Positions 2,744 to 47,938 of a stretch of DNA of 64,000 nucleotides are shown here, one piece after another. The DNA lies in the NCBI GenBank assembly GCA_050948905.1, contig JBMNES010000001.1, positions 821,448 through 885,447 of the forward strand, written 5' to 3'. The notes under the pieces were generated by a model. It did not search any database, was not told where the DNA came from, and saw only the letters and a program-made list of their open reading frames with translations. Numbering within the stretch: the stretch's first letter is position 1; each line of letters begins with the position of its first letter. The stretch comes from Armatimonadota bacterium (GTDB lineage Bacteria > Armatimonadota > UBA5829). The position numbers were made by a program, and so were the translations under genes.

Positions 2744-3973
2744 ATGACCGAGAATGGAATCAGCAGAAGAGAGTTTCTAGTCGGTACGGCTGCAGGGATC
2801 ACGCTCGCGGGCTTGGGAATGGCGGGGTCTCGCGCCTACGCTGCCAACGACCGAATCTCGATCGGGATGATCGGAGTCGGAGTCCGCGGAAACCAGCTAT
2901 TTAACGACATTAAAGCGGTAGATAAGGCGTTAAACGCCGAAGTGACCGCGGTCTGCGACACCTGGAGCGTGAGGCGGGAGCAGATGGTCGCAAAGGTCAA
3001 AGAGCGCTACGGCACTGCGCCGAGAGCTTTCACCAACTACGAAGATCTGCTTGCCTTAAAAGATGTAGATGCGGTTGTCATCGCCACCCCGGACTTCTCG
3101 CACGCCAGGATTCTCACCGATGCGATAAAAGCGGGCAAGGATGTATTCATAGAAAAACCACTTGCAAAAGACCTGGACCAGGCCAATGCTGCTATGGATG
3201 CGTTTGAGGCGTCAAAGTGCGTTATTCAAGTGGGTACCCAGCGCAGAAGCGAGGGAAACTGGAAAGAAGCGGCTAAGCTGATTCAATCCGGCGTGCTGGG
3301 CACTATAAGCCGGGTGGAAATCGGATGGAACGACCATAACCCGCGATGGCGACAAAACGTGAGCGGGATTAAAGCCGAGGATGTCGACTGGAAGCGCTTT
3401 TTGATGCATTTGCCTAACCGGCCGTTCGATCCGCACCGCTACGGAGAATGGCAGCTTTATCGGGATTATACCAACGGGCCGATAGCGGTCCTCGGCGCGC
3501 ACTATTTCGACGTCGGACTTTGGCTTACCGGCGCAAAGTTCCCATCGAATGCGGTGGCAAGCGGCGGGCAATACGTCTGGAAAGACGGCCGGGAGCACGA
3601 AGACACCCTGTATGCGCTATACGATTTCCCGGAGGGGTTTATGATGCGATACCTGTCCGGGCTGGGCAACTCGGCCGACGCTGGTTTGAGCATATATGGA
3701 ACCAACGGGGTTTTCAGAGAATCGACCTGGAGCGCAACGGGTGACGGCGGCCGCAACACGGACAAGATTAAAGAGGAGATTAAAATCTCCGGCAACCCTA
3801 ATCAGAATCACATTGGCAACTGGTTGGAGTGTGTGAGAAGTCGCGAAAAGACGAATGCGCCGTTTGAGGTGGGGTATCAGCATTCTATTTGCACAATGCT
3901 GGGCTATCAGGCTATGGTGAAGGGCCGGAAAATGAAGTTTATGCCGACCCTGCGACGGATAGTGGAGGCGTAG
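2744..3973 (+). CDS. Gfo/Idh/MocA family oxidoreductase with Tat signal
   Basis: SRREFLVGTAAG Tat motif; IGMIGVGVRG Rossmann; EKPLA motif. Confidence 0.85.
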   Translation: MTENGISRREFLVGTAAGITLAGLGMAGSRAYAANDRISIGMIGVGVRGNQLFNDIKAVDKALNAEVTAVCDTWSVRREQMVAKVKERYGTAPRAFTNYEDLLALKDVDAVVIATPDFSHARILTDAIKAGKDVFIEKPLAKDLDQANAAMDAFEASKCVIQVGTQRRSEGNWKEAAKLIQSGVLGTISRVEIGWNDHNPRWRQNVSGIKAEDVDWKRFLMHLPNRPFDPHRYGEWQLYRDYTNGPIAVLGAHYFDVGLWLTGAKFPSNAVASGGQYVWKDGREHEDTLYALYDFPEGFMMRYLSGLGNSADAGLSIYGTNGVFRESTWSATGDGGRNTDKIKEEIKISGNPNQNHIGNWLECVRSREKTNAPFEVGYQHSICTMLGYQAMVKGRKMKFMPTLRRIVEA

Positions 3974-3993
3974 TTTATCGATTGGAGGGCCGT

Positions 3994-4875
3994 ATGAGAG
4001 AGTGCTTATGGCTTGGGATAATCGCGTTGATGGTGTTGCTTGCGACGACTAACGTCTCTGCCAAATCACAGCAGTGGGAAGTCGAGAAGCTGCCGGGGAC
4101 GTATAAGTTCACCGAAGGCCCGGTTTGGACGCCGTGGGGCAGTTTGCTGTTCAGCGACTGCAACGACAACAAAATATGGGAGATAACCACTCCGGGCACT
4201 GCTCCTGAATGCAAGGTTTTCCGCGACCCTGCAGGCCCTTCAAATGGTCTTACATTCGACAGACAGGGCAGATTAGTGGCGTGTGATTACGGCCATCATC
4301 GAGTCACCCGCACCGAAAAAGACGGCAAGATCACGGTGCTGGCAGAGTCTTATGAAAGTAAGCGACTGAACAGTCCGAACGATATTATCGTCAGATCAGA
4401 TGGGAGCATCTACTTTACTGATCCTTCTTATGGCGTAAAAGAGGAGGACCGGGAGCTTGATTTTAAAGGGGTCTTTCTTATTAAACCCGATGGCAAGCTG
4501 GTATTGCTGACCAAAGATTTCGACATGCCCAACGGTTTGTGTTTATCTTTGGATGAAAAAAAGCTCTATATTGCAGACTCGTCTAATCGGCGGCATATAA
4601 GAATATTCGACGTTGCCAAAGACGGGACGATTTCCGGCGGCGATGTGATATTTACATTCCCGAAAACCGGTGTGCCGGACGGGATGAAAATCGGCAGGGA
4701 CGGGAATCTATACTCATCTGGACCCGAAGGCATCTGGGTTTTCGACCCGACAGGTAAGCATTTATACACTTTTCCAGTCCCGGAAGTGCCAGCCAATCTG
4801 GCATTTGGGGATAAGGACGGCAAGACGCTGTATATAACTGCCAGGACCGGGGTGTATAGGGCGAGGCCGAAATAA
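3994..4875 (+). CDS. SMP-30/gluconolactonase/LRE family protein, secreted
   Basis: Signal peptide MRECLWLGIIALMVLLATTNVSA; NDIIVRSDGSIYFTDPSYG and PNGL motifs of the gluconolactonase beta-propeller; internal ATG at 3994 chosen over the ORF-track start. Confidence 0.75.
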   Translation: MRECLWLGIIALMVLLATTNVSAKSQQWEVEKLPGTYKFTEGPVWTPWGSLLFSDCNDNKIWEITTPGTAPECKVFRDPAGPSNGLTFDRQGRLVACDYGHHRVTRTEKDGKITVLAESYESKRLNSPNDIIVRSDGSIYFTDPSYGVKEEDRELDFKGVFLIKPDGKLVLLTKDFDMPNGLCLSLDEKKLYIADSSNRRHIRIFDVAKDGTISGGDVIFTFPKTGVPDGMKIGRDGNLYSSGPEGIWVFDPTGKHLYTFPVPEVPANLAFGDKDGKTLYITARTGVYRARPK

Positions 4876-5888: not shown

Positions 5889-5936
5889 CCCTGTGCTTAA
5901 TATAAGCACGGGGCCGAGTGCTCTTGAGAGCGTGGC
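5889..5936 (+). terminator. Strong 16-bp hairpin (CTCGGCCCTGTGCTTA / TAAGCACGGGGCCGAG, loop ATAT) downstream of the isomerase gene; no clear U-tract
   Basis: Inverted repeat read directly in the sequence. Confidence 0.4.
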
Positions 5937-6027
5937 CGGGACATTGGCACGGCCATACATTGCTTGAAAAATTGAAAAATCAGTTGGTCAATTTGACCCA
6001 GGATTTCTATTTCGCAGGAGAGTAGCC

Positions 6028-6918
6028 ATGAAGTGTGCCAGGTGCGGGTTGGAGTTGCCGCCGGGAACCAGGCAGTGCCCAAAGTGTGGATTAACCAACG
6101 AGTTCGTGCAATCCGCCGAACCCGCAAAAAAGAAAATGCACCCGCTATATTATGCTCTTATCGGCCTGGCGGTTGTGGGTTTGATCGCGCTGTTGGTAGT
6201 AGTGGCAGGGGGCAGAAACCCGACGGTTGCCCCGGCCGGAATTGAACGTGAGGATCGCAACATCACGGCCGCGCCGCCTCCTCAGCCTGCTGACAGCGGA
6301 ATCGTAACCGCGCCTCCAGGTGAGGCGCCTCCCGCCGAGAAGACTCCGGAAGCTGCGCCTAAGCCTAAGCCTACCAGGGAGATGGTCGAATATTTTGCTT
6401 ACGTCAAAAAGGTGGAGGAACACCGACAGATGCTGCTCAAGGACACCGGCGCAGCGCTAATGCTGGGCTCAGCGGCAGGTGGATTGATGAGTATGATAAA
6501 CCTGGCGATGGACCCCGAAGGCAAAGAGGCTCAGGACCCGTTGGCGGATTCTAAAAAGGAACTAAATCGGCAATATAAGAACTGGCTTGCCACTTTGAAG
6601 TTCTTTGACAACAAGCCCGCACCGCCAGAGTGTCGAGAGTTTGCAGGCGCATATAGAAACGTGCTCTATCTGGAGACAAAAGCTATCGGCCAAATAGCTG
6701 CTGGTTTCAACTCAGTCAATATAATGGATCCATCCGATATGTCCAAACTGTTGGCTGCGTTGCAAAAGATGAAAGGCGATCCATCGATTCAGGGCAATAT
6801 CGACAAAGCTGCCGACGCCGCCGATGGAAAACTGACGGATTTAGTCTCCAACTACGATATGGAGAAACCGTTTGATGTGCCGAGGGAGAAAAAAGAAGGC
6901 AATATCATGGGATTCTGA
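6028..6918 (+). CDS. Hypothetical membrane protein: N-terminal zinc ribbon (CxxC..CxxC), one TM helix, Pro-rich linker, C-terminal domain of unknown function
   Basis: MKCARCGLELPPGTRQCPKCGL; hydrophobic LYYALIGLAVVGLIALLVVVAGG; PPPQPADSG..PPGEAPPAEKTPEAAPKPKP linker. Confidence 0.6.
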   Translation: MKCARCGLELPPGTRQCPKCGLTNEFVQSAEPAKKKMHPLYYALIGLAVVGLIALLVVVAGGRNPTVAPAGIEREDRNITAAPPPQPADSGIVTAPPGEAPPAEKTPEAAPKPKPTREMVEYFAYVKKVEEHRQMLLKDTGAALMLGSAAGGLMSMINLAMDPEGKEAQDPLADSKKELNRQYKNWLATLKFFDNKPAPPECREFAGAYRNVLYLETKAIGQIAAGFNSVNIMDPSDMSKLLAALQKMKGDPSIQGNIDKAADAADGKLTDLVSNYDMEKPFDVPREKKEGNIMGF

Positions 6919-38974: not shown

Positions 38975-39175
38975 ATATAAAAGACGCCAGGCGGCTGGTT
39001 CGAACTTCAGACGGCTGATTTCGGACATCGAAAAAGCAGATTTCTCGCTGTGCTCGAAATGACGGGGATGGGTCCTCGAAATGGCGGGAAATGTTGTGGG
39101 GTGGCGATTCGGAGATCGCCACCCATCATAAAACTGGACAGACAAGACGGTATCTCGCTGCGCTCGAAATGACGG
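38975..39175. repeat. REP/MITE-like repeat cluster (site 5): two ATTTCTCGCTGyGCTCGAAATGAC units and a GGTGGCGATTCGGAGATCGCCACC palindrome
   Basis: Direct comparison with the other sites. Confidence 0.8.
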
Positions 39176-39633: not shown

Positions 39634-40285
39634 TCCTCAGAATCCGGATGCCGTCGGCGACCGCTCGGAGTTTGATCGGTTGATGACTGCTGCCAGGGTC
39701 TACAGGCGGCGCGACGACTACGCAGCGGCTACCAAAGCCGTCCAACAGGCTCTACAGATAATGCCCAATGACCTTGACGCGCAGGAGTTCGCGGCCGATA
39801 TGATCTACGCTCACGGCGACCTGCAGAAGGCGATTGATTATTATAAACTAATTTTGCAAGCTGACCCAAAGCGCGCGTCGGCAGAGACGAAATACGCCAA
39901 GGCCGTATTGGAGTTGGCGGAGGGACATCGACAGCGGGAATTGGTGCAGCAGATGCTGGATAACCCAGTCAAACCGCATGTTTCGAGGAGAAACCCCGCT
40001 ATCGCCGCGATGCTGTCCATAGCGCCGGGGTTCGGACACATATATTGCGGGCTGTATACCGTCGGCATAGCGTTGTTTTGCGGATGGGTATTCGCGTGGA
40101 TGCTTTTTTTCTGGACGCTGGGAGAGTCTGTGGGAGTCCAGATAACCAGTCGTCTCACCGCGGCGTCAACCGCATTCGCCTGTATTGCAGCCGCGTTGCA
40201 TATTTATGCGCTGGTTAGCGCAGCTCAGCACGCAGAGCGAATCAACTCCGGCCTTAACTCCGACAAATCCGCTAATCCTGAGTAA
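39620..40285 (+). CDS. TPR-repeat protein with two C-terminal TM helices
   Basis: TPR-like helices (AATKAVQQALQIMPNDLDAQEF..); hydrophobic C-terminus. Confidence 0.55.
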   Translation: MTSIDPQNPDAVGDRSEFDRLMTAARVYRRRDDYAAATKAVQQALQIMPNDLDAQEFAADMIYAHGDLQKAIDYYKLILQADPKRASAETKYAKAVLELAEGHRQRELVQQMLDNPVKPHVSRRNPAIAAMLSIAPGFGHIYCGLYTVGIALFCGWVFAWMLFFWTLGESVGVQITSRLTAASTAFACIAAALHIYALVSAAQHAERINSGLNSDKSANPE

Positions 40286-43200
40286 CGTCAGCGCTCTGTT
40301 CCGTGTGATCGGGCGGATTGTCGTTATGATTTGACTTCTTGCGTCGGGTGTAGGTCCGGCGACGCCTCTTTGGTTTCGGTTCTGCAGGTGCAGACTCCGC
40401 TTCAGCCTCAATATCCGGAGTAGCTGCGACAGGCTCCGACGATTCGACGACCGGTGCAGAGCTTTCAGCGGCCTCTGGCTCGGCGCTTTTATCCGTTTCC
40501 TGCGACTCAGTGCGAGGTTTTCTGTGTCCACGACCCCCGCGAGGGCGTCTTCTGGGCTTCGGCGCTGGTGATTCGTCGGCGGGCTGCTCGGCTACTGGCT
40601 CTGCTGATGTGTCAATTTGCTCGGCAGTCGGATCAGGCTCTTCGGCTATTGGTGTTTCTGCCTCCAGGGGCGTCTGCGCCTCCGATGGCTCCTCGACCGT
40701 CGATTCTGCGTGGGATTTCTTATGACCCCGGCTGCGAGGTTTTCTCCGATGCTTTTTGGTGTGTTTTGGTTCTGCAACCTCCGGTGTCTCCGGCGAGGTC
40801 TCTTCCGACTCCGTTTTTGGCAACAGATCAATTGCCTGAGGCTCAATTATCTCGGCCGTATCGATTTTGACCTCTAAGGGTTCCTCAGGTTTGGTGGAGT
40901 GTTTCGATTTGCGCTTCGGCTCGGATTCAATTCTCCTTCTGCCGAATTTGAAATCGTTCTCCAACACTTGTACCTGCGGGATTAAAGGCGCAGGTGCGGC
41001 GTCGTAATCGACTGGTTTCGGCGGCTTCGGATAAGACAACCTAATTACGTGTGCTCCATGTGTCACGGAGGCGAACCTCGTCGGAGTAGGCTTGCCATTG
41101 ATGGTTACAGATGACCCCACCGGCCCTGGAGGATAGACGTCAACTCTAACTCCTTCCGGCACGTCGACAGTGACTTCCATCCCGTTGCGAACAATGCGCC
41201 ACTTCACGCTTAGCGGGCCATTTTGTGTGTTAAAGGTCCCGTGCGCCCATTTCAAATCTCCCGTGTGAGGAGTCACCACAAATCGATGCGCACCGGCAAC
41301 TGGTTTTATGCCGACATATTCCGCAATAAGATCACGTGTAGGCGCGACCGCAGAGCCGTGGCATAGACACCCTCGAGTGTCAAAATCCTCCCACAGCGTC
41401 GTTGCTCCAGCTTTGATCATCTGTCCCCACGTGCGACGCATATAGGCCAGCGCCTCGTCGTGGCGATCCAGCAAGTATAGCGCCTCAAGGTAGTATGAAG
41501 CAAAGTAGGGTGTGGTCAACTCCGGCAGGGTGTGTATTTGTCGCATTATGCCGGCTTTTTGATACTGGTCGGTAACATCGAACAACGCTGCAAGGATATT
41601 CGCCTGGGCACTGAATTTCTCCACCAACTGGCCATCGACTCTGCACTCAGCGAAAAGACCGTTTCTCGGCACATATAGATACTTGTTCAGGGCGACCTTA
41701 AGATTATGCGCCGCTGAGATATAACGCTCGGCATCCTCTTCCTTGCCGCATATAGACGCCAGCGCGGCTGCCACACGAAGGCCCTGATAATAGAAACAGT
41801 TCAGAGCCGTAACCTCACCTTCGCGCTCCAGATCGGCGTGATCCACCTGCAAATGCCCCGGAACGTCGGCCAGCAGCCCGCTATCGTTGATGTATCGCCC
41901 GAACCACGACAGCAGCTTCTCCACAGTCGGGTAGAGTTCTTCGACCAGTTCTGCGTCGTCAGAAAATGCATAGTAGTCCAGAATAGAGTAGATCCATAGC
42001 AAAGCGAGGTCCGGGGCGAGCATCTCCACCCCTGCCGGATATAACGCCAGCACGGTGCCGTCTTTGTCCTGCGAGGCGGCGAACTGCCTTAGCGCCTGGG
42101 CCAACAGCGCGGTATCTCCAAAAGCGTAATAAGCGGTTCGCGATAACAGCCTGGCTTCGCTCCACCATTGCGCTCTCTCGCGCAGTGGACAATCTATGAA
42201 AGTATCCTGCATGCAGAGTTCGGCGGTGTATGCGCCCGCCTCCCAAATCTCGGTGATAAGCCGGTCGTTGCACTTAAAGGAGGCCGCTGGCTGGATGGGA
42301 TAAGTAGTCTGGTTGACTCGAACATATTGCAACGCTACAGGCTTCGAACAGCGCCGGAACTCTATCTGTAGAAATCTGAACGCACGCGGCTGAAAGCTTT
42401 GCCACTCAAGCGCACCTCTTCGAAGCAGCAATCGATCTGTGCATAGAGTTTCCTGGGCGTCTGGCTTGATGCGCCCATCGACCAATTCCTCGCAATAGCC
42501 GAGATCGATACAGCCGGTTCCCGATCCTGCTATGCCAATTTCGACGTTACCGAACACCTCTCGGCCGAAATCCAGCAATATTGCGACACCTCTGCCACCG
42601 CGTGGGGTTTTGATGTGGGCAACACCATCGGCGGTCAGCAATGCGCTTTCGTCTTTTACCTGCCCGGCTCTGAGATTAGCCATCTCCGCCGCAGCCATAA
42701 TTGCGGGCATTTCTGTGATCGGGATATCTTTTTCGAGGTCCGGGGTGTTTCCAATAGCAACAATAGCAGCCGGAAGGATTGTGCGCTCGTTAAGCTGGGG
42801 AATCTGTCTGGCAAGCAATTTCCCGAACGGCAAGGCTGGAGGTGTGGCTACTACTGCAGCAGCTTCCCAGCCCTTTTCTCTAAACTTTATCTCTCGCCAG
42901 GCGTTATCGACCAGTGCAGCGTTATAGCTCTCCTGAAAGCCCAAACGATGGTTCATCCGTGCGCCATCAGCTACCCACTCTTCCGCCCGCTGCATTTTCC
43001 AAGTTTCGTCAGTTACGATAGACAAAGCCTCGTCCGCCAGTTCGACTTTTACCTTGCAGATCAAACCCGGCCGCCCCGCAGACGCAGCAAACGTGTCCTT
43101 GCCGATATGATGGGCCAAAACGGCTATTACATTGTCGCCTTTGTGCAGGAGTTCGCCTATCTGGAAAGTGTCGAAATAGCACTGACCTTCGCCGGATCGC

Positions 43201-43469
43201 ACCGGGCCTTTGCCGACGTATTGGCCGTTGATATATAGTTTATACAGTGAGTTCGCGCTTATTTTGAGTGAAGCGGACTTTGGTGCAGCGGGGAGCGAAA
43301 ACTTCCTGCGCGCGCGGATGTAAGAGTTGACAACAGGCTCCGCATCCGCAAGCCAGATCCAGTGGCACGGACTATTTTCAGCCGGCTTGTCATTATGCTT
43401 TTTTGCACCGCGTCTGAATCGCGATGCTCCGACAGCCGCCGGCAGGAGTGATATAAACGAATGAAGCAT
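40272..43469 (-). CDS. GH78 alpha-L-rhamnosidase-like six-hairpin glycosidase with a ~300-aa highly charged, low-complexity C-terminal tail
   Basis: N-terminal YKLYINGQYVGKGPVRS; (alpha/alpha)6 core DCPLRERAQWWSEARL; tail rich in E/P/A/T with KR clusters (KPRSRGHKK, KPRRRPRGGRGHRKPR, KPKRRRRTYTRRKK). Confidence 0.7.
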   Translation of the reverse strand: MLHSFISLLPAAVGASRFRRGAKKHNDKPAENSPCHWIWLADAEPVVNSYIRARRKFSLPAAPKSASLKISANSLYKLYINGQYVGKGPVRSGEGQCYFDTFQIGELLHKGDNVIAVLAHHIGKDTFAASAGRPGLICKVKVELADEALSIVTDETWKMQRAEEWVADGARMNHRLGFQESYNAALVDNAWREIKFREKGWEAAAVVATPPALPFGKLLARQIPQLNERTILPAAIVAIGNTPDLEKDIPITEMPAIMAAAEMANLRAGQVKDESALLTADGVAHIKTPRGGRGVAILLDFGREVFGNVEIGIAGSGTGCIDLGYCEELVDGRIKPDAQETLCTDRLLLRRGALEWQSFQPRAFRFLQIEFRRCSKPVALQYVRVNQTTYPIQPAASFKCNDRLITEIWEAGAYTAELCMQDTFIDCPLRERAQWWSEARLLSRTAYYAFGDTALLAQALRQFAASQDKDGTVLALYPAGVEMLAPDLALLWIYSILDYYAFSDDAELVEELYPTVEKLLSWFGRYINDSGLLADVPGHLQVDHADLEREGEVTALNCFYYQGLRVAAALASICGKEEDAERYISAAHNLKVALNKYLYVPRNGLFAECRVDGQLVEKFSAQANILAALFDVTDQYQKAGIMRQIHTLPELTTPYFASYYLEALYLLDRHDEALAYMRRTWGQMIKAGATTLWEDFDTRGCLCHGSAVAPTRDLIAEYVGIKPVAGAHRFVVTPHTGDLKWAHGTFNTQNGPLSVKWRIVRNGMEVTVDVPEGVRVDVYPPGPVGSSVTINGKPTPTRFASVTHGAHVIRLSYPKPPKPVDYDAAPAPLIPQVQVLENDFKFGRRRIESEPKRKSKHSTKPEEPLEVKIDTAEIIEPQAIDLLPKTESEETSPETPEVAEPKHTKKHRRKPRSRGHKKSHAESTVEEPSEAQTPLEAETPIAEEPDPTAEQIDTSAEPVAEQPADESPAPKPRRRPRGGRGHRKPRTESQETDKSAEPEAAESSAPVVESSEPVAATPDIEAEAESAPAEPKPKRRRRTYTRRKKSNHNDNPPDHTEQSADVTQD

Positions 43470-43494
43470 ACTGTATTATCTCAGAATTGGCTAT

Positions 43495-43745
43495 TTATTT
43501 CCACTGAGAAGCATGGGCCATTCCCCCTCAGTCATTTCGGCCCCTCTCCTCTGTCATTTCGGCCTTTCTCCTCTGTCATTTCGAGCGCAGCGAGAAATCT
43601 GCTTTTTTCGATGTCCGATATCCGAGCTTCGAAGCCCTCATAACTGTAGAATAGCCGGGACAGAGGCCGGCCACTACATTTTGCTATCGTTTCCCTTCCC
43701 CGTGGATTCCGCGGAATGACAGAGGGTGGCGAGAAATGACAAACC
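43495..43745. repeat. REP/MITE-like repeat cluster (site 6), including a tandem triplication of a ~20-nt CCTCTGTCATTTCGGCC unit
   Basis: Tandem repeats and the GTCATTTCGAGCGCAGCGAGAAAT and GGCCGG..CCGGC modules read directly. Confidence 0.75.
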
Positions 43746-43789
43746 AACCTGCTTGCAATTGTTCTTGCTGAAGGCTAACATTTAAGCTG

Positions 43790-44743
43790 ATGGCAAGTTC
43801 CACAGAGACCAAGCCCGCAAACGGGCACATATCCGACCAGACTCCGAACCTGGAGCTTCATCTTAGCAGGGATGTTTTCGTCACCGGGAAGCGTCTCAGC
43901 GGCGTGGTGGTGCTTCGGCTTGGTCAGAGCGTCAATATGCGGTCGCTGGTCGTCTCCTTTGACGGATCGGAGCGACCGAGGGGGGTCTCGTTGGCTCGTG
44001 CTTTCCGGAAGGCTCATTCTTTTTTTAACAGAGAGAAACTACTGACTGGAGCGTTGGAGCCTCGGCTGGCTTCTGAGCGACTATCTCTGTTATGGAATGC
44101 GCTGCTTGGAAGGTACACCGGGCGGACGTTGAGCGCCGGTGAGCATACATACCCATTTTCGATTCCCCTGCCCGCCTCGCTGCCACCGAGCTACGACGGT
44201 AAAGCGGGCAAAATTCGATATCGCGTGACGGCCAAATTCCAACCGGCAATCGGCAGAGCGATCAAGGTCTCGAAGGTCGTAGATGTACTCTTTGTGCCAC
44301 GACTGCACCGGGAGAGACCTATGGCGCTGGGGTATCCGGAGGCGGATGGGACTGTGCAGCCTACCGACATCAAGGCGAGTATCGAACTCGTCGAGCGGAT
44401 GGTCGGTATGGGAGAGGCTGTGCAGGGCAGTTTTTCGATATCTAACCCCAAAAGCGCGGATATTCCACGAGTGACGGTGTCTTTGGAGGTCTGCGAGTGG
44501 GTGAGGCTGGCTGTTGATAAGGAAATCCAGCGCGACAGGGTCGATATGGCGGTTATCGTGCCGGAAAACCCGTCTGCCACGTCCATCGAAGCCCCATTTA
44601 AGCTCCGATTGCCTAAAACCGCGCCGCCGACCATCGAAGGAAGCTCGATATCCGTCATCTGGTTGCTAAAACTGACCCTGGACACCGACCCAACCATCGA
44701 AGTTAAGACGCCGATCACGGTATACATCGGAAACAAGCAATGA
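43790..44743 (+). CDS. Arrestin-fold (alpha-arrestin-like N+C domain) protein
   Basis: LELHLSRDVFVTGKRLSGVVVL N-domain start; GEHTYPFSIPLPASLPPSYDGKAGKIRYRVTAKF matches the eukaryotic alpha-arrestin G.H.FPF.LP..LP.S..G..G.I.Y motif; C-domain beta-sandwich-like ending VIWLLKLTLDTDPTIEVKTPITVY. Confidence 0.6.
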   Translation: MASSTETKPANGHISDQTPNLELHLSRDVFVTGKRLSGVVVLRLGQSVNMRSLVVSFDGSERPRGVSLARAFRKAHSFFNREKLLTGALEPRLASERLSLLWNALLGRYTGRTLSAGEHTYPFSIPLPASLPPSYDGKAGKIRYRVTAKFQPAIGRAIKVSKVVDVLFVPRLHRERPMALGYPEADGTVQPTDIKASIELVERMVGMGEAVQGSFSISNPKSADIPRVTVSLEVCEWVRLAVDKEIQRDRVDMAVIVPENPSATSIEAPFKLRLPKTAPPTIEGSSISVIWLLKLTLDTDPTIEVKTPITVYIGNKQ

Positions 44744-45822
44744 ACGGAAGAGAGCGCGTCATTGCCGCTATGGAGCACAGACCGGTGGATCGTATCCCGG
44801 TCTTTCCCGTGGTCACAAACTACATCGGCGCGAGGGTTCTTGGTCGTAAAATGATCGATATGGACCTCGACCCGATGCTGAAATTTGAGTCCACAGCCGC
44901 TATTATCAAGCGCTTCGGCTTTGATGGGATCGAGGTTGGAATAGGCCCGGAGCGCGGATGGGAGACGCACCGGCAGGTGGTGGAGGTCGACGGGGAGAAG
45001 TGTCTTGCTTACTCCGACGGAACCCCTTACGCCAGACTTCAGGAAAACGATCAGGCGATACGAATTGCCTCCGATCCACCGCTGAAAAACAAGCGCGATC
45101 TGGATAATATCCCCGTCACGGCTGCCGAGTCTTACGAAGAACGCGGTTGTCTGGAGCCGTTGAGAGAACTGGTGAGGCGTATTGGCGATGATGTGTTTTT
45201 GGCGGGAGTGGCGGCTGGGCAGACGATGAATTCGCTGGTGGCGTGGCGAGGGTCGGACCAGGGGATGCTGGATTTAGTCGATGACCCCGGATTTGTGCTG
45301 GCTGTTATGGAAAAGGCGACCGATATTTCTATAGAGATCGGCAAAGCAGCTATCTCTGCAGGGGTCCACGGGATGTATATCGGGGACGCCTGGGCATCGG
45401 CGAGCATAATTTCCCCTCACCATTACGAAAAATTCTGCCAGCCGTTTCACGCAAAAGCCGCCGATGCGTTTCACCAGTTGGGAGCCAAAGTCTACCTGCA
45501 CATATGCGGTAATTCGTCGCCTATACTTGAGATGATGGCCGACACAGGGGTGGATGCGATTGAGCCGCTTGATCAGATGGATATCGACGGGCTTGCGGAT
45601 GCGAAAAGGCGCGTGGGGGACAGGGTCTGTCTGAAAGGCGGGATAAGCACGTCGTCTCTGCTGAATGGCTCAAGTGAAGAAGTCTACAGGTTATGTGCGG
45701 AGGCCATCGAACGCTGCGGCCCGACTGGGTATATACTCGGCAGCGGCGACGACATCCCGAGAGATGCTCCGTTTGAGAATATAGACGCTATGCGCAGGGC
45801 GAGTGAAGAGGCTGGGTATTAG
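44740..45822 (+). CDS. Uroporphyrinogen decarboxylase (URO-D) family protein, MtaA/CmuA-like methyltransferase-type, translationally coupled (ATGA) to the arrestin-like gene
   Basis: RERVIAAMEHRPVDRIPV N-terminus and overall URO-D TIM-barrel family pattern. Confidence 0.65.
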   Translation: MNGRERVIAAMEHRPVDRIPVFPVVTNYIGARVLGRKMIDMDLDPMLKFESTAAIIKRFGFDGIEVGIGPERGWETHRQVVEVDGEKCLAYSDGTPYARLQENDQAIRIASDPPLKNKRDLDNIPVTAAESYEERGCLEPLRELVRRIGDDVFLAGVAAGQTMNSLVAWRGSDQGMLDLVDDPGFVLAVMEKATDISIEIGKAAISAGVHGMYIGDAWASASIISPHHYEKFCQPFHAKAADAFHQLGAKVYLHICGNSSPILEMMADTGVDAIEPLDQMDIDGLADAKRRVGDRVCLKGGISTSSLLNGSSEEVYRLCAEAIERCGPTGYILGSGDDIPRDAPFENIDAMRRASEEAGY

Positions 45823-45942
45823 AACATCCGCTATTTCCAACATCCTACCTCGGACAGCGGGGCCTCGAATATAGTCATTGACATACGTCCCAGTTGAGGA
45901 TAAAGTATAATTGGCAGGTTTAGATCGGAGCATGATTGATCC

Positions 45943-46263
45943 GTGAGGCTTGAAGAGTTTAGAAACCTGGTTAAGCGTGAGTTTGGTGAGAACCTCCGGC
46001 ACGCCACGCCCGGCAACGTCCGGGATTTCCTCGATCGCATCGAAAACGAAGTCCTCTCGGAAAAGGTCAGCCACCGCATAGTGCTCAACGAGCCGTGTAC
46101 GTCTTATGAGGAGATAATTAAGGATTTCTTCTCACAGATGCTGGAATTGCCTCCTGAGGAGGCTGTGGTTGGTTTGTGGGCACTGGCGCTGGACCTGGCG
46201 TTTGCATCTATAGAATCGCAATATACAGATCGCTTCGCGTCGTTGTTCAAGGATATGGAATAA
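45943..46263 (+). CDS. Hypothetical protein (106 aa)
   Basis: ORF with coding-like composition; no family recognised. Confidence 0.4.
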   Translation: MRLEEFRNLVKREFGENLRHATPGNVRDFLDRIENEVLSEKVSHRIVLNEPCTSYEEIIKDFFSQMLELPPEEAVVGLWALALDLAFASIESQYTDRFASLFKDME

Positions 46264-46336
46264 TATCAGCGGCCTTGATTGCGGCTGTTGTATAATGGCG
46301 TATCAAGATTTATACTACCTGAGGTCGCCTTAGTTA

Positions 46337-47938
46337 ATGGATAGCACCGAGCAGCTTGAGGATAAAAGCACAGATTCCGGCAAAGAAAACGTCATTACAA
46401 CCACCGAAGGCAAGAAACACTTCGCCAGAAACACCGCCTCAAGCCTGATCTTCTTCGCGTTTAACGCCATCACCTCGCTCATGATGGTGCCGTATCTGAT
46501 CCACCGCATCGGGATCGAAAACTACGGCATGGTCACGCTCGCCAACTCGTTTATCTCCATGACGCAGGTGTTCACCATAGTCATCGTGGGCACAGTTACC
46601 CGCTTTGTGATGCTGTATGCTGCGAAGGGTGAAAACGAGACTGCAAGGAGATATTTCAGCACGCAATTTACCGCGATTGTGGTGATGTGCGCGATTATTT
46701 TGCCGGTGGCGGGTGTGCTTTCATATCTGACACCGAGGTTTGTCAAAATCCCGCCCGGGCAGACGATCAACACCCAGTGGCTGTTCTTCTTATGTTATCT
46801 GGCGTTTATCCCGAACCTGTTCGTCTCACCACTGCAGGTTGCGCAGTTCATTAAACAGCGATTCGATATTCGCAATATGCTGGAGATTGTTAACCAGGTC
46901 TTCAGATATGGCACCTGGATAGTGATGTTTGCCGTGATGACCCCGGCGCTGTGGCAGGTGGGGCTGGGGTATGTTATCGGGTCGACTGTAGTTATATTTT
47001 CTACCTGGCTCGTATTTATGAAGCTGACCCCTTATCTCAAACCGACTCTTGGCGTGTTTGATAAGGGCAAGTTCTTTGAGATGGTGCGGATGGGGGGTTG
47101 GGTGACGGTCAACCAGGTAGGCTCAATGCTTTATTTGAGCGTGGATGCCATTGTCATTAACAGATTAATGGGGCCAGCCAGTGTCGGTAAGTATGGCACG
47201 ATTTTGGGGCTTTTTTCGATGTTGAGGGGAATGAGCAGCCTGATGTCGGGGATGATGATGCCGCTGACGATTTCGTACTACGCTCGAAACGATATCCCCG
47301 GACTGATGCGCAACTCGGCCAAGGCTGTAAAGTTTATGTCTTTGGGGATGGCAGTGCCGCTGGGGTTGGCGTGCGGGTTTATTGTGCCATTTATAAGCTG
47401 GTGGTTGGGGCCAAAATACGCGTATTTGTGGATTGTGGCGTGGCTGCTCCTGGCTCCACAGGTATGGAACTCGTCGATGGAGCCGCTGTTTGCCATAAAT
47501 AACGCGGCAAATAAGGTCGCGTTACCCGGAGTGGTGGCAGTGGCAGGCGGTTTAGTAAAATTGGGGCTTGCGATTGTTTTAATAAAATATACATCGCTGG
47601 GGCTGGTCGGTGCTGCGTTGGCTAACCTGATAGCTTTCGGCCTCAAGAATGTGGTATTTACACCGATATATGCCGCACATATCCTCAAAAGTTCGAGCGC
47701 GTCTTTTTACAAAGCCACAATACCGTCGGTATTCGTATTCGCTGTGGTAGCGGCGATATCGTGGCAAGTGACGCAGATGATAAGCCTCAAGACATTACCG
47801 ACGATCGCAGGAGTGGGGCTGGCGCTATTGGCGGTGTTTGCCCTGCTCACATATAGATTCGCTATGAACGAGGATGACAGGCGGTTTTTCAGGCAGGTTG
47901 CGCCGTGGAGCAAAAAGAAAGGAACCTCGGCGATTTGA
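46337..47938 (+). CDS. Polysaccharide biosynthesis protein, Wzx-like MOP-superfamily flippase
   Basis: ~12-14 TM helices; N-terminal SSLIFFAFNAITSLMMVPYLIHRIGIENYG typical of Wzx/RfbX. Confidence 0.75.
   Translation: MDSTEQLEDKSTDSGKENVITTTEGKKHFARNTASSLIFFAFNAITSLMMVPYLIHRIGIENYGMVTLANSFISMTQVFTIVIVGTVTRFVMLYAAKGENETARRYFSTQFTAIVVMCAIILPVAGVLSYLTPRFVKIPPGQTINTQWLFFLCYLAFIPNLFVSPLQVAQFIKQRFDIRNMLEIVNQVFRYGTWIVMFAVMTPALWQVGLGYVIGSTVVIFSTWLVFMKLTPYLKPTLGVFDKGKFFEMVRMGGWVTVNQVGSMLYLSVDAIVINRLMGPASVGKYGTILGLFSMLRGMSSLMSGMMMPLTISYYARNDIPGLMRNSAKAVKFMSLGMAVPLGLACGFIVPFISWWLGPKYAYLWIVAWLLLAPQVWNSSMEPLFAINNAANKVALPGVVAVAGGLVKLGLAIVLIKYTSLGLVGAALANLIAFGLKNVVFTPIYAAHILKSSSASFYKATIPSVFVFAVVAAISWQVTQMISLKTLPTIAGVGLALLAVFALLTYRFAMNEDDRRFFRQVAPWSKKKGTSAI

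Follow-up and report, generated by a model that had tools for sequence, protein, structure and literature searches.

In eukaryotes, arrestins serve as key adaptors in the signalling and trafficking of membrane proteins; they are most familiar from signalling in animal cells, and reach ubiquitin ligases or clathrin through their C-terminal tails. For prokaryotes, the main evolutionary survey of arrestins gave only a distant branch, that of the Bacillus subtilis sporulation-control protein Spo0M, described in 2008 as an arrestin-clan family of archaea and bacteria (PMC2515105). According to our literature search, arrestin domains also count as “eukaryotic signature proteins” in Asgard archaea. 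Some of the Asgard arrestins reported have their N- and C-domains in separate genes (10.1101/2021.04.02.438162), and a 2026 study reported that it had found no prokaryotic protein resembling VPS26C in structure (PMC13392464). The same search found no paper using the terms “bacterial arrestin”, “prokaryotic arrestin” or “archaeal arrestin”, and no published study of the family described here, some members of which are labelled “arrestin family protein” in databases.

We analysed a window of 64,000 nucleotides from an uncultured Armatimonadota bacterium, in which the gene of an arrestin-fold protein (ORF1) is followed by that of a URO-D-superfamily enzyme (ORF2). The features of the locus are the following.

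40272 to 43469, minus strand: GH78 alpha-L-rhamnosidase-like gene, 1065 aa, divergent from ORF1 (Pfam Bac_rhamnosid6H, _N and _C)
43470 to 43789, no strand assigned: divergent intergenic region with dispersed short repeats (repeat search)
43790 to 44743, plus strand: ORF1, arrestin-fold protein gene, 317 aa, pI 9.7, cytoplasmic
44740 to 44743, plus strand: ATGA stop/start overlap of ORF1 and ORF2, read from the sequence and typical of translational coupling
44740 to 45822, plus strand: ORF2, URO-D-superfamily gene, MtaA-like TIM barrel, 360 aa, pI 4.9
45943 to 46263, plus strand: small conserved ORF downstream of the pair, 106 aa, no Pfam match

ORF1 genuinely belongs to the arrestin superfamily: it is a bacterial, “core-only”, cytoplasmic and basic protein made of two beta-sandwich lobes. 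Both Pfam arrestin models score above their gathering cutoffs, Arrestin_N (PF00339) with 74.6 bits against 24.9 over residues 25-164 and Arrestin_C (PF02752) with 38.9 bits against 27.7 over residues 194-313. The predicted structure has an N-lobe at about residues 20-167, a C-lobe at 195-312 and a conserved helix at 94-105, which may resemble helix I of beta-arrestin; its two-lobed, curved fold is not a generic beta-sandwich but specifically resembles solved structures of the arrestin clan, with VPS26 as the top match. The motif GEHTYPFSIPLPASLPPSYDGKAGKIRYRVTAKF, quoted in the first-pass annotation as that of an alpha-arrestin N-domain, is present and aligns with the equivalent stretch of human ARRDC3 in a search of PDB sequences. 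The same annotation described a two-lobed arrestin, as found here, and one without signal peptide or transmembrane helix; on this second point too we agree, since the highest Kyte-Doolittle mean over 19 residues is 1.18, which leaves no hydrophobic segment, and the N-terminus is disordered. The chain ends five residues past the last modelled strand (303-312 of 317), leaving no C-terminal tail, and the sole PPxY, PPSY at 132-135, lies within the conserved N-lobe motif.

Homologues are numerous for both proteins (105 clusters with E-values from 1e-56 to 1e-191 for ORF1, and 260 with E <= 1e-40 for ORF2), so both are real genes and not chance ORFs. The first-pass annotation had pointed to PVC genomes for a profile of the gene pair; every named relative belongs instead to the Armatimonadota, and the family is strongly conserved in that phylum. 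At E <= 0.01, PADLOC matched none of ORF1, ORF2 and the 106-aa ORF to a defence-system protein, and an anti-phage defence reading of the locus was set aside for want of support from it.

The overlap at 44740-44743, from which co-expression of the two genes had been proposed, is kept as ATGA or GTGA in four other loci (L001, L002, L015 and L038), and the arrestin-URO-D gap is 7-8 nt in L022 and L023. Such a layout suits the proposal, and ORF1 and ORF2 are probably co-transcribed and translationally coupled. The 106-aa ORF, 87% identical copies of which lie after the URO-D gene in loci L002 and L015, is preceded by a promoter-like site of its own (TTGACA-17-TAAAGT, 45878-45906) and is therefore likely to be transcribed separately. 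Downstream of ORF2, a search for an intrinsic terminator found none, the 3’ intergenic region is no more stably folded than its shuffled versions (z = +1.16), and Rfam returned nothing credible in 43300-46400.

The repeat-rich stretch reported upstream of ORF1 is real. Three tandem 22-nt units occupy 43526-43591, the last running into an element of about 40 nt, TGTCATTTCGAGCGCAGCGAGAAATCTGCTTTTTTCG, and a copy of a second repeat subfamily lies inverted at 43712-43725. The 14-mer core of the repeats has nine matches in the window against 0.55 expected (12113, 16423, 19105, 39165, 43526, 43548, 43570, 43712 and 49155), and all nine are intergenic; this scatter indicates a genome-wide dispersed element rather than a locus-specific feature, and the “insulated module” deduced from the repeats has to be abandoned. 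A strict “GTCAT plus hairpin” search gave five matches, compared with one to five in shuffled sequences; because this leaves the enrichment unclear, we describe the elements only as dispersed sequence repeats and not as proven hairpins. Beyond them, the GH78-like gene, whose product carries a long C-terminal tail of charged, low-complexity sequence, keeps its synteny with the arrestin only in the clade of at least 65% arrestin identity (L002, L003, L008, L015, L017, L018 and L020; tblastn).

For the comparison of loci, genomes were scanned with a family profile built from 11 sequences, the final neighbourhood tallies were taken from tblastn, and the family tree is a rough NJ tree. Two arrestin neighbours recur: the URO-D orthologue follows immediately, and a gene for a serine kinase/anti-sigma protein of the RsbW/SpoIIAB type comes immediately before. 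The arrestin-URO-D pairing occurs in seven of 31 loci, in one of them decayed to a pseudogene, and kinase genes adjoin the arrestin in seven loci, counts that leave out six further candidate URO-D and two candidate kinase co-locations. Co-location with an arrestin was confirmed on an 8489-bp contig (P0069/P0261); a supposed pair on 5899 bp (P0287/P0252) was rejected, the adjoining gene being a GH38 mannosidase. The pairing is thus present in relatives, whose lack of it the first-pass annotation would have counted against its proposal, but it is not a fixed two-gene module.

With moderate confidence, we propose that the arrestin is a protein-protein adaptor in a partner-switching-type signalling circuit. 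In lineages such as this one it would bind the co-operonic URO-D-like enzyme, which is acidic, at a ratio of about 1:1, and regulate or scaffold it; that the two bind, that phosphorylation is involved and which way the regulation runs are all inferred.

A serious alternative, to which we give a distinctly lower probability, is that the adjacency is inherited synteny without functional interaction. The arrestin would then have its own phylum-wide role through another conserved partner, for instance an anionic membrane surface or a phosphoprotein, and the URO-D-like enzyme would be an unrelated metabolic gene, perhaps glycan-related, that shares the operon in some lineages. Such a history would fit the majority of arrestin loci, which have no URO-D gene (a different gene follows the arrestin in 19 of the 27 loci with readable downstream sequence), as well as locus L025, where an intact arrestin stands beside a URO-D pseudogene and therefore does not need the enzyme in cis. 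Seen from the other side, none of the four URO-D orthologues examined (53-65% identity) has an arrestin within 4 kb, and the genes around the arrestin are otherwise highly variable across loci. The basic pI is common to paired and unpaired members of the arrestin family and is therefore no mark of a URO-D partner; the genomes concerned commonly carry glycoside hydrolases, and URO-D paralogues are abundant enough to raise the background rate of co-occurrence. Against mere synteny, however, the same URO-D orthologue keeps its place, immediately downstream and on the strand of the arrestin, in three lineages with arrestins as divergent as 49-58% identity, and the 4-nt overlap is maintained in five loci, this one included. 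All verified paired URO-D genes are also the closest relatives of ORF2 (65-93% identity), compared with 58-65% for the three unpaired Armatimonadota-type orthologues examined, and the arrestin, URO-D and kinase neighbourhoods interlock (L038, L034).

The recurrent RsbW-type kinase, which is absent from the first-pass annotation, is the stronger clue to function. The upstream gene encodes a HATPase_c_2 domain, sometimes with STAS, which in the seven loci counted above lies in the same ORF or nearby. HATPase_c_2 genes also adjoin the URO-D orthologue in L034/L035, and one locus has the arrestin, the URO-D orthologue and the kinase together. No HATPase_c_2 or STAS gene was detectable by tblastn in the window, and the evidence for the kinase link therefore comes from other lineages. 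A more specific form of our proposal would make the Armatimonadota arrestins components of RsbW/STAS partner switching, either standing in for a sigma factor as the protein that the kinase sequesters, or reading the phosphorylated STAS protein, with a relay to the URO-D-like enzyme; we consider it rather unlikely in this exact form, and our literature search found no description of an arrestin-fold protein as a partner-switching component.

The enzyme itself had been assigned to the MtaA/CmuA methyltransferase type, which is correct as to the superfamily and the nearest relative but too specific as to the type. ORF2 scores 158.8 bits with Pfam URO-D, MtaA is its best sequence match (E 4.6e-15), and its model (pLDDT 93.1) has MtaA 4ay8 as the top Foldseek match (2e-18). 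Its scores with the NCBIfam subfamily models, however, are 120.5 bits against a cutoff of 235.4 for mtaA_cmuA (TIGR01463), about half, and 39.4 bits against an equivalog cutoff of 302.95 for hemE (TIGR01464). His254 and Cys256 (LHICGN, H-x-C) are invariant among 21 orthologues. The zinc ligands of MtaA, His-Cys-Cys, were located from the 4ay7 alignment, in which “APGCGI” of MtaA stands opposite “GSGDDI” of ORF2, so that the third ligand cysteine is replaced by Asp337/Asp338, both at least 90% conserved in the same 21 orthologues. An aspartate at this position could still bind metal, and from its sequence we regard ORF2 as an MtaA-like URO-D-superfamily enzyme with a putative His-Cys-Asp metal site. 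That ORF2 is nevertheless a canonical corrinoid-dependent MtaA/CmuA methyltransferase, with the arrestin as an accessory of a methyl-transfer pathway, would agree with its best matches and with the invariant H-x-C of the zinc motif, but is very unlikely given the subfamily score, the nearly invariant Asp-Asp and the gene context: no cobalamin-binding, MtaB, MtaC-like or other corrinoid-protein domain was found among annotated neighbours at 37.6-52.7 kb of the window or in the paired locus L038.

A eukaryotic source of ORF1, through assembly contamination or recent horizontal transfer of an alpha-arrestin, which would make it uninformative about bacterial arrestins, is hardly credible: the family profile does retrieve ARRDC-type proteins of animals, with E-values near 1e-27 to 1e-30, roughly as strongly as other prokaryotic arrestins, and the Pfam models that ORF1 matches are dominated by eukaryotic sequences, but the family is found in dozens of independent Armatimonadota MAGs, on contigs of up to 1.67 Mb with bacterial neighbours, ORF1 sits in a bacterial overlapping-gene operon with a local GC content (0.53-0.58) that matches that of the flanking DNA, it lacks eukaryotic tails and PY motifs, and similar Arrestin_N+C proteins of about 300 aa occur in an Asgard archaeon, in unclassified bacteria and in Verrucomicrobiae. 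A transfer in the distant past, whichever way it went, could have taken place.

The recurrence of an MtaA-like enzyme and an RsbW-type kinase as neighbours gives concrete candidates for binding experiments, so that recombinant proteins can be used to test which task an arrestin performs where a cell has no GPCRs, ubiquitin ligases or endocytosis. Should the partner-switching reading be true, the family would show an arrestin and a protein kinase coupled in a prokaryote and would serve as a model, in bacteria, of the way in which phosphorylation-dependent arrestin signalling might have arisen, and the arrestin would become a weaker marker of Asgard archaea and eukaryotes.

Compared with known systems, the enzyme shares the URO-D TIM-barrel fold and the H-x-C motif with the MtaA/CmuA methyltransferases and HemE, from which it differs in a gene context that is glycan- or envelope-related. 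The arrestin loci share HATPase_c_2 and STAS genes with the RsbW-RsbV and SpoIIAB-SpoIIAA partner-switching modules but, in the loci with Pfam labels, have no sigma-factor domain beside the kinase. Unlike the eukaryotic alpha-arrestins (ARRDC1-5, TXNIP, the yeast ARTs and the C. elegans ARRD proteins), ORF1 is strongly basic, belongs to a bacterium without endocytic or ubiquitin machinery and has no C-terminal tail, and thus no tail PPxY for NEDD4/Rsp5-type ligases; it therefore lacks the tail PPxY/LPxY by which alpha-arrestins serve as E3 adaptors for WW-domain HECT ligases. It likewise lacks the regulatory C-tail, three-element interaction and clathrin- and AP2-binding motifs of the visual/beta-arrestins, a group marked also by a phosphate-sensing polar core and by recognition of phosphorylated receptors. 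VPS26 leads the structural matches, yet Vps26 (PF03643) gave no Pfam match to ORF1 at E <= 1 and, in contrast to VPS26/VPS26C of retromer and retriever and to RGP1, no VPS35, VPS29 or Ric1 counterpart is encoded near ORF1. Spo0M (PF07070) also gave no Pfam match at E <= 1, and its structure aligns with ORF1 along no more than 153 residues, roughly a single lobe; the profile matches of ORF1 are instead to the arrestin-proper models Arrestin_N and Arrestin_C. Going by these profile matches, the ORF1 family is one of well-conserved bacterial full-length Arrestin_N+C proteins, closer to the arrestin-proper models than Spo0M. The arrestin-domain proteins of Asgard archaea are prokaryotic and match both models as ORF1 does, and an arrestin-like protein of Promethearchaeati (labelled “zinc-ribbon domain-containing protein”) is among the second-tier matches of the family profile. 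Unlike the split Asgard cases, however, ORF1 is a single full-length bacterial gene of a phylum-wide family, and arrestin N+C proteins are therefore not confined to Asgard archaea and eukaryotes.

The two genes lie where the first-pass annotation had placed them, and the overlap behind the translational coupling that it proposed can be read directly in the sequence, where the ATG of the downstream gene (ORF2) and the TGA of the upstream one (ORF1) share an ATGA. Positions below refer to the window, except in the last line.

40272-43469, - strand: divergent GH78 rhamnosidase-like gene
43526-43591: three tandem 22-nt repeat units, upstream of ORF1
43712-43725: inverted repeat copy, upstream of ORF1
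43790-44743, + strand: ORF1, arrestin-fold gene (317 aa)
44740-45822, + strand: ORF2, URO-D-superfamily gene (360 aa)
45878-45906: promoter-like site of the next ORF's own
45943-46263, + strand: small acidic ORF (106 aa, GTG start)
L027 (an arrestin locus elsewhere) 3930-4763: STAS and HATPase_c_2 in a single ORF (RsbV-like plus RsbW-like), directly upstream of the arrestin gene

ORF1 and ORF2 are both real genes, with numerous homologues: 105 clusters for ORF1 (37-93% identity, almost all of 300-335 aa) and 260 homologues at E <= 1e-40 for ORF2. ORF1 has, as had been reported, neither a signal peptide nor a TM segment; it lacks any hydrophobic segment and begins with a disordered N-terminus of about 14 residues, and is therefore cytoplasmic. 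The local GC content around the pair (0.53-0.58) is the same as on either side, which gives no sign of an island. ORF1 is basic (pI 9.7), whereas ORF2 is acidic (pI 4.9).

The repeat-rich stretch upstream of ORF1 had been taken as the sign of an insulated module. The tandem units and the inverted copy do exist; they are, however, dispersed intergenic elements of the genome and not a locus insulator. The 14-mer core, CCTCTGTCATTTCG, has 9 copies in the window, where 0.55 would be expected, and all of them are intergenic (12113, 16423, 19105, 39165, 43526-43591, 43712 and 49155). There are at least two longer subfamilies, '...TGTCATTTCGAGCGCAGCGAGAAATCTGCTTTTT...' (12113, 19105 and 43570; degenerate at 39165) and '...TGTCATTCCGCGCGTAGTCGCGGAATCCAC...' (16423, 43712 and 49155). 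Some copies hold short inverted repeats, such as ATTCCGCG...CGCGGAAT. The elements resemble REPs or MITEs; a strict search for hairpins gave no clear enrichment, and Rfam returned nothing credible in 43300-46400.

The arrestin identity of ORF1 is solid. Its family is tightly conserved, with 23 invariant positions that include the N-lobe motif, W102/N103/L106/R108 in a helix and a C-E-W motif in the C-lobe, and it is basic (median pI 9.63; above 8 in 94% of members). Some relatives are labelled 'arrestin family protein' or 'VPS26 family protein' by NCBI, and every one with an organism name belongs to Armatimonadota, not to the PVC bacteria across which the first-pass annotation proposed to profile the gene pair. 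An exhaustive profile search with the family across 1.84 billion representative proteins gave 13 representatives above 220 bits, then a sharp fall to 145 bits or less and a long tail (3898 matches at E <= 1e-3). This tail holds other prokaryotic Arrestin_N+C proteins of about 300 aa, from Armatimonadota, Verrucomicrobiae, unclassified bacteria and a Promethearchaeati (Asgard) archaeon, as well as animal ARRDC-type proteins (about 1e-27 to 1e-30); a small number of its prokaryotic forms bear extra Prok-RING/zinc-ribbon, PP2C or HEAT domains. By sequence, the family lies about as near to animal alpha-arrestins as to other prokaryotic arrestins. In the MAG locus L007, the arrestin gene (3801-4765) is split over two frames, with residues 20-71 and 87-312 matching different ORFs; the split marks a frameshifted pseudogene or else an assembly error.

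The assignment of ORF2 to the MtaA/CmuA type holds only in part. The protein has the TIM-barrel fold of the URO-D superfamily (Pfam, 158.8 bits), and its nearest match is MtaA, in sequence (4ay7, E 4.6e-15) as well as in structure (4ay8, E 2e-18; predicted model, pLDDT 93.1), with true uroporphyrinogen decarboxylases ranking after it, and the MtaA-type H-x-C (H254, C256) is invariant in its orthologues. On the other side, ORF2 falls under the NCBIfam MtaA/CmuA cutoff (120.5 versus 235.4), the third zinc-ligand Cys of MtaA aligns with a nearly invariant Asp-Asp (337/338), and no corrinoid-protein domain was found among the scanned neighbouring genes. The HemE cutoff is likewise not reached (39.4 versus 303). 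ORF2 should be named 'URO-D family protein, MtaA-like', and not MtaA.

The survey covered 31 distinct arrestin loci, drawn from genomes (one per species), from metagenomes and from contigs looked up by exact protein. In seven of them, namely the window, L001, L002, L015, L022, L023 and L038, the next gene downstream, on the same strand, is the URO-D orthologue (65-93% identity to ORF2), with a 4-nt ATGA or GTGA overlap at five junctions and a gap of 7-8 nt at two. In an NJ tree of the arrestins, these seven loci represent three separate arrestin lineages, whose arrestins are 72-100%, 57-58% and 49% identical to that of the window. A different gene follows the arrestin at 19 loci, and four contigs end too early to tell. 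L025, sister to L023, catches the pairing in the course of its loss: its intact arrestin gene is directly followed by a URO-D pseudogene (5889-6320) in which the first ~38 codons remain and an internal deletion and a number of stop codons come after them. None of four further URO-D orthologues (53-65% identity; one from Bacillota) has an arrestin gene within 4 kb, and the genomes of these loci are rich in URO-D paralogues. The arrestin persists without the enzyme, and the enzyme occurs without the arrestin, as would be seen under the main rival explanation, in which the two genes are neighbours by inherited synteny and the arrestin works across the phylum with a separate partner of its own; recurrence in three lineages with closely spaced junctions speaks against it. 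The pairing is thus old and recurrent, its genes are placed for coupled expression, and it can nevertheless be lost. The URO-D coupling is real but facultative. Relatives do carry the pairing, whose absence from all of them the first-pass annotation had named as grounds for rejection; a fixed two-gene module is likewise unsupported.

The second recurrent neighbour is an orthologous HATPase_c_2 gene, of the RsbW/SpoIIAB-type serine kinase/anti-sigma factor kind, found no more than 1.5 kb from the arrestin gene in seven loci (48-63% identity to the L030 copy). Four loci (L007, L024, L027 and L030) have it directly upstream of the arrestin and on the same strand, with a 4-nt overlap of the arrestin start in L030; in L006 it is downstream and convergent, and in L026 and L038 one gene separates the two. 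The L027 ORF has similar STAS-kinase proteins of 260 aa among its homologues; in L027 and in P0387, P0388 and P0390 the two domains share one polypeptide of ~260-277 aa. In L038 the order is kinase, serine acetyltransferase, arrestin and URO-D (ATGA overlap), with a 3-keto-disaccharide-hydrolase-domain gene farther on. The URO-D orthologue of L034/L035 stands without an arrestin and has a STAS and a HATPase_c_2 gene at its flanks. Kinase-linked loci occur in the deeper branches of the arrestin tree; neither a HATPase_c_2 nor a STAS gene was detectable within the 64-kb window. These interlocking neighbourhoods give the best clue to function that is available, and among the leads the link to the kinase most deserves testing.

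The genes around ORF2 comprise the GH78 gene, a polysaccharide flippase, a pyruvyl transferase, a GT2 glycosyltransferase and MurJ. The divergent GH78 gene is upstream in most members of the window's arrestin clade with a readable flank, and is syntenic with the arrestin in the clade of at least 65% arrestin identity. Its product carries a low-complexity, highly charged C-terminal extension of ~230 residues, in which K/R/P runs alternate with E/A/P/S; such an extension is unusual for a glycoside hydrolase. The 106-aa ORF, without Pfam or PADLOC matches, also follows the URO-D gene at the same place in L002 and L015 (87% conserved). In several lineages a 3-keto-disaccharide hydrolase (DUF1080-type) domain gene recurs within a few kb of the arrestin (L022, L023, L025, L027, L030, L038); taken with the GH78, GH39, GH38 and sugar-ABC-transporter genes near arrestin or URO-D genes, it suggests a glycan-metabolism setting for the URO-D-like enzymes. 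URO-D-family paralogues, abundant in Armatimonadota and some Bacillota genomes, also stand in tandem pairs (L029 535-2776; L034/L035 1-1136; L037 4001-6350, adjoining sugar-type ABC transporter genes); this expansion appears uncharacterised.

Arrestin-fold proteins of known function are protein-protein adaptors. ORF1 is a basic core without a tail, probably co-translated with the acidic ORF2 enzyme and, at the family level, linked to a partner-switching kinase. In the reading that we favour, it would be an adaptor that binds the URO-D-like enzyme and is itself connected to a phospho-signalling circuit. We hold a complex of ORF1 and ORF2 to be somewhat less likely than not, and a direct relationship between kinase and arrestin to be rather unlikely.

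A 2008 survey of arrestin origins gave Spo0M as the sole prokaryotic assignment (PMC2515105), Asgard studies counted arrestin domains as eukaryotic signature proteins (10.1101/2021.04.02.438162), and a 2026 study described VPS26C as having no prokaryotic structural homologues (PMC13392464). The terms 'bacterial arrestin', 'prokaryotic arrestin' and 'archaeal arrestin' are in no paper of the literature searched. That bacteria encode Arrestin_N+C proteins is in itself no novelty, because databases already name them; the present work adds an account of an arrestin family that spans the phylum, is basic and lacks a tail, and of its two recurrent genomic partners. Among the second-tier representatives of the profile search, P0124 (399 aa, JGI metagenome) and 2-4 others fuse Arrestin_N+C to Prok-RING_1/zf-RING_2 and zinc-ribbon domains, one carries PP2C and another HEAT repeats; P0376, a 373-aa protein from a Promethearchaeati archaeon that goes by the name 'zinc-ribbon domain-containing protein', belongs to a second-tier arrestin cluster. 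The arrestin-RING fusions may deserve separate study, and they recall the eukaryotic pairing of alpha-arrestins with E3 ligases.
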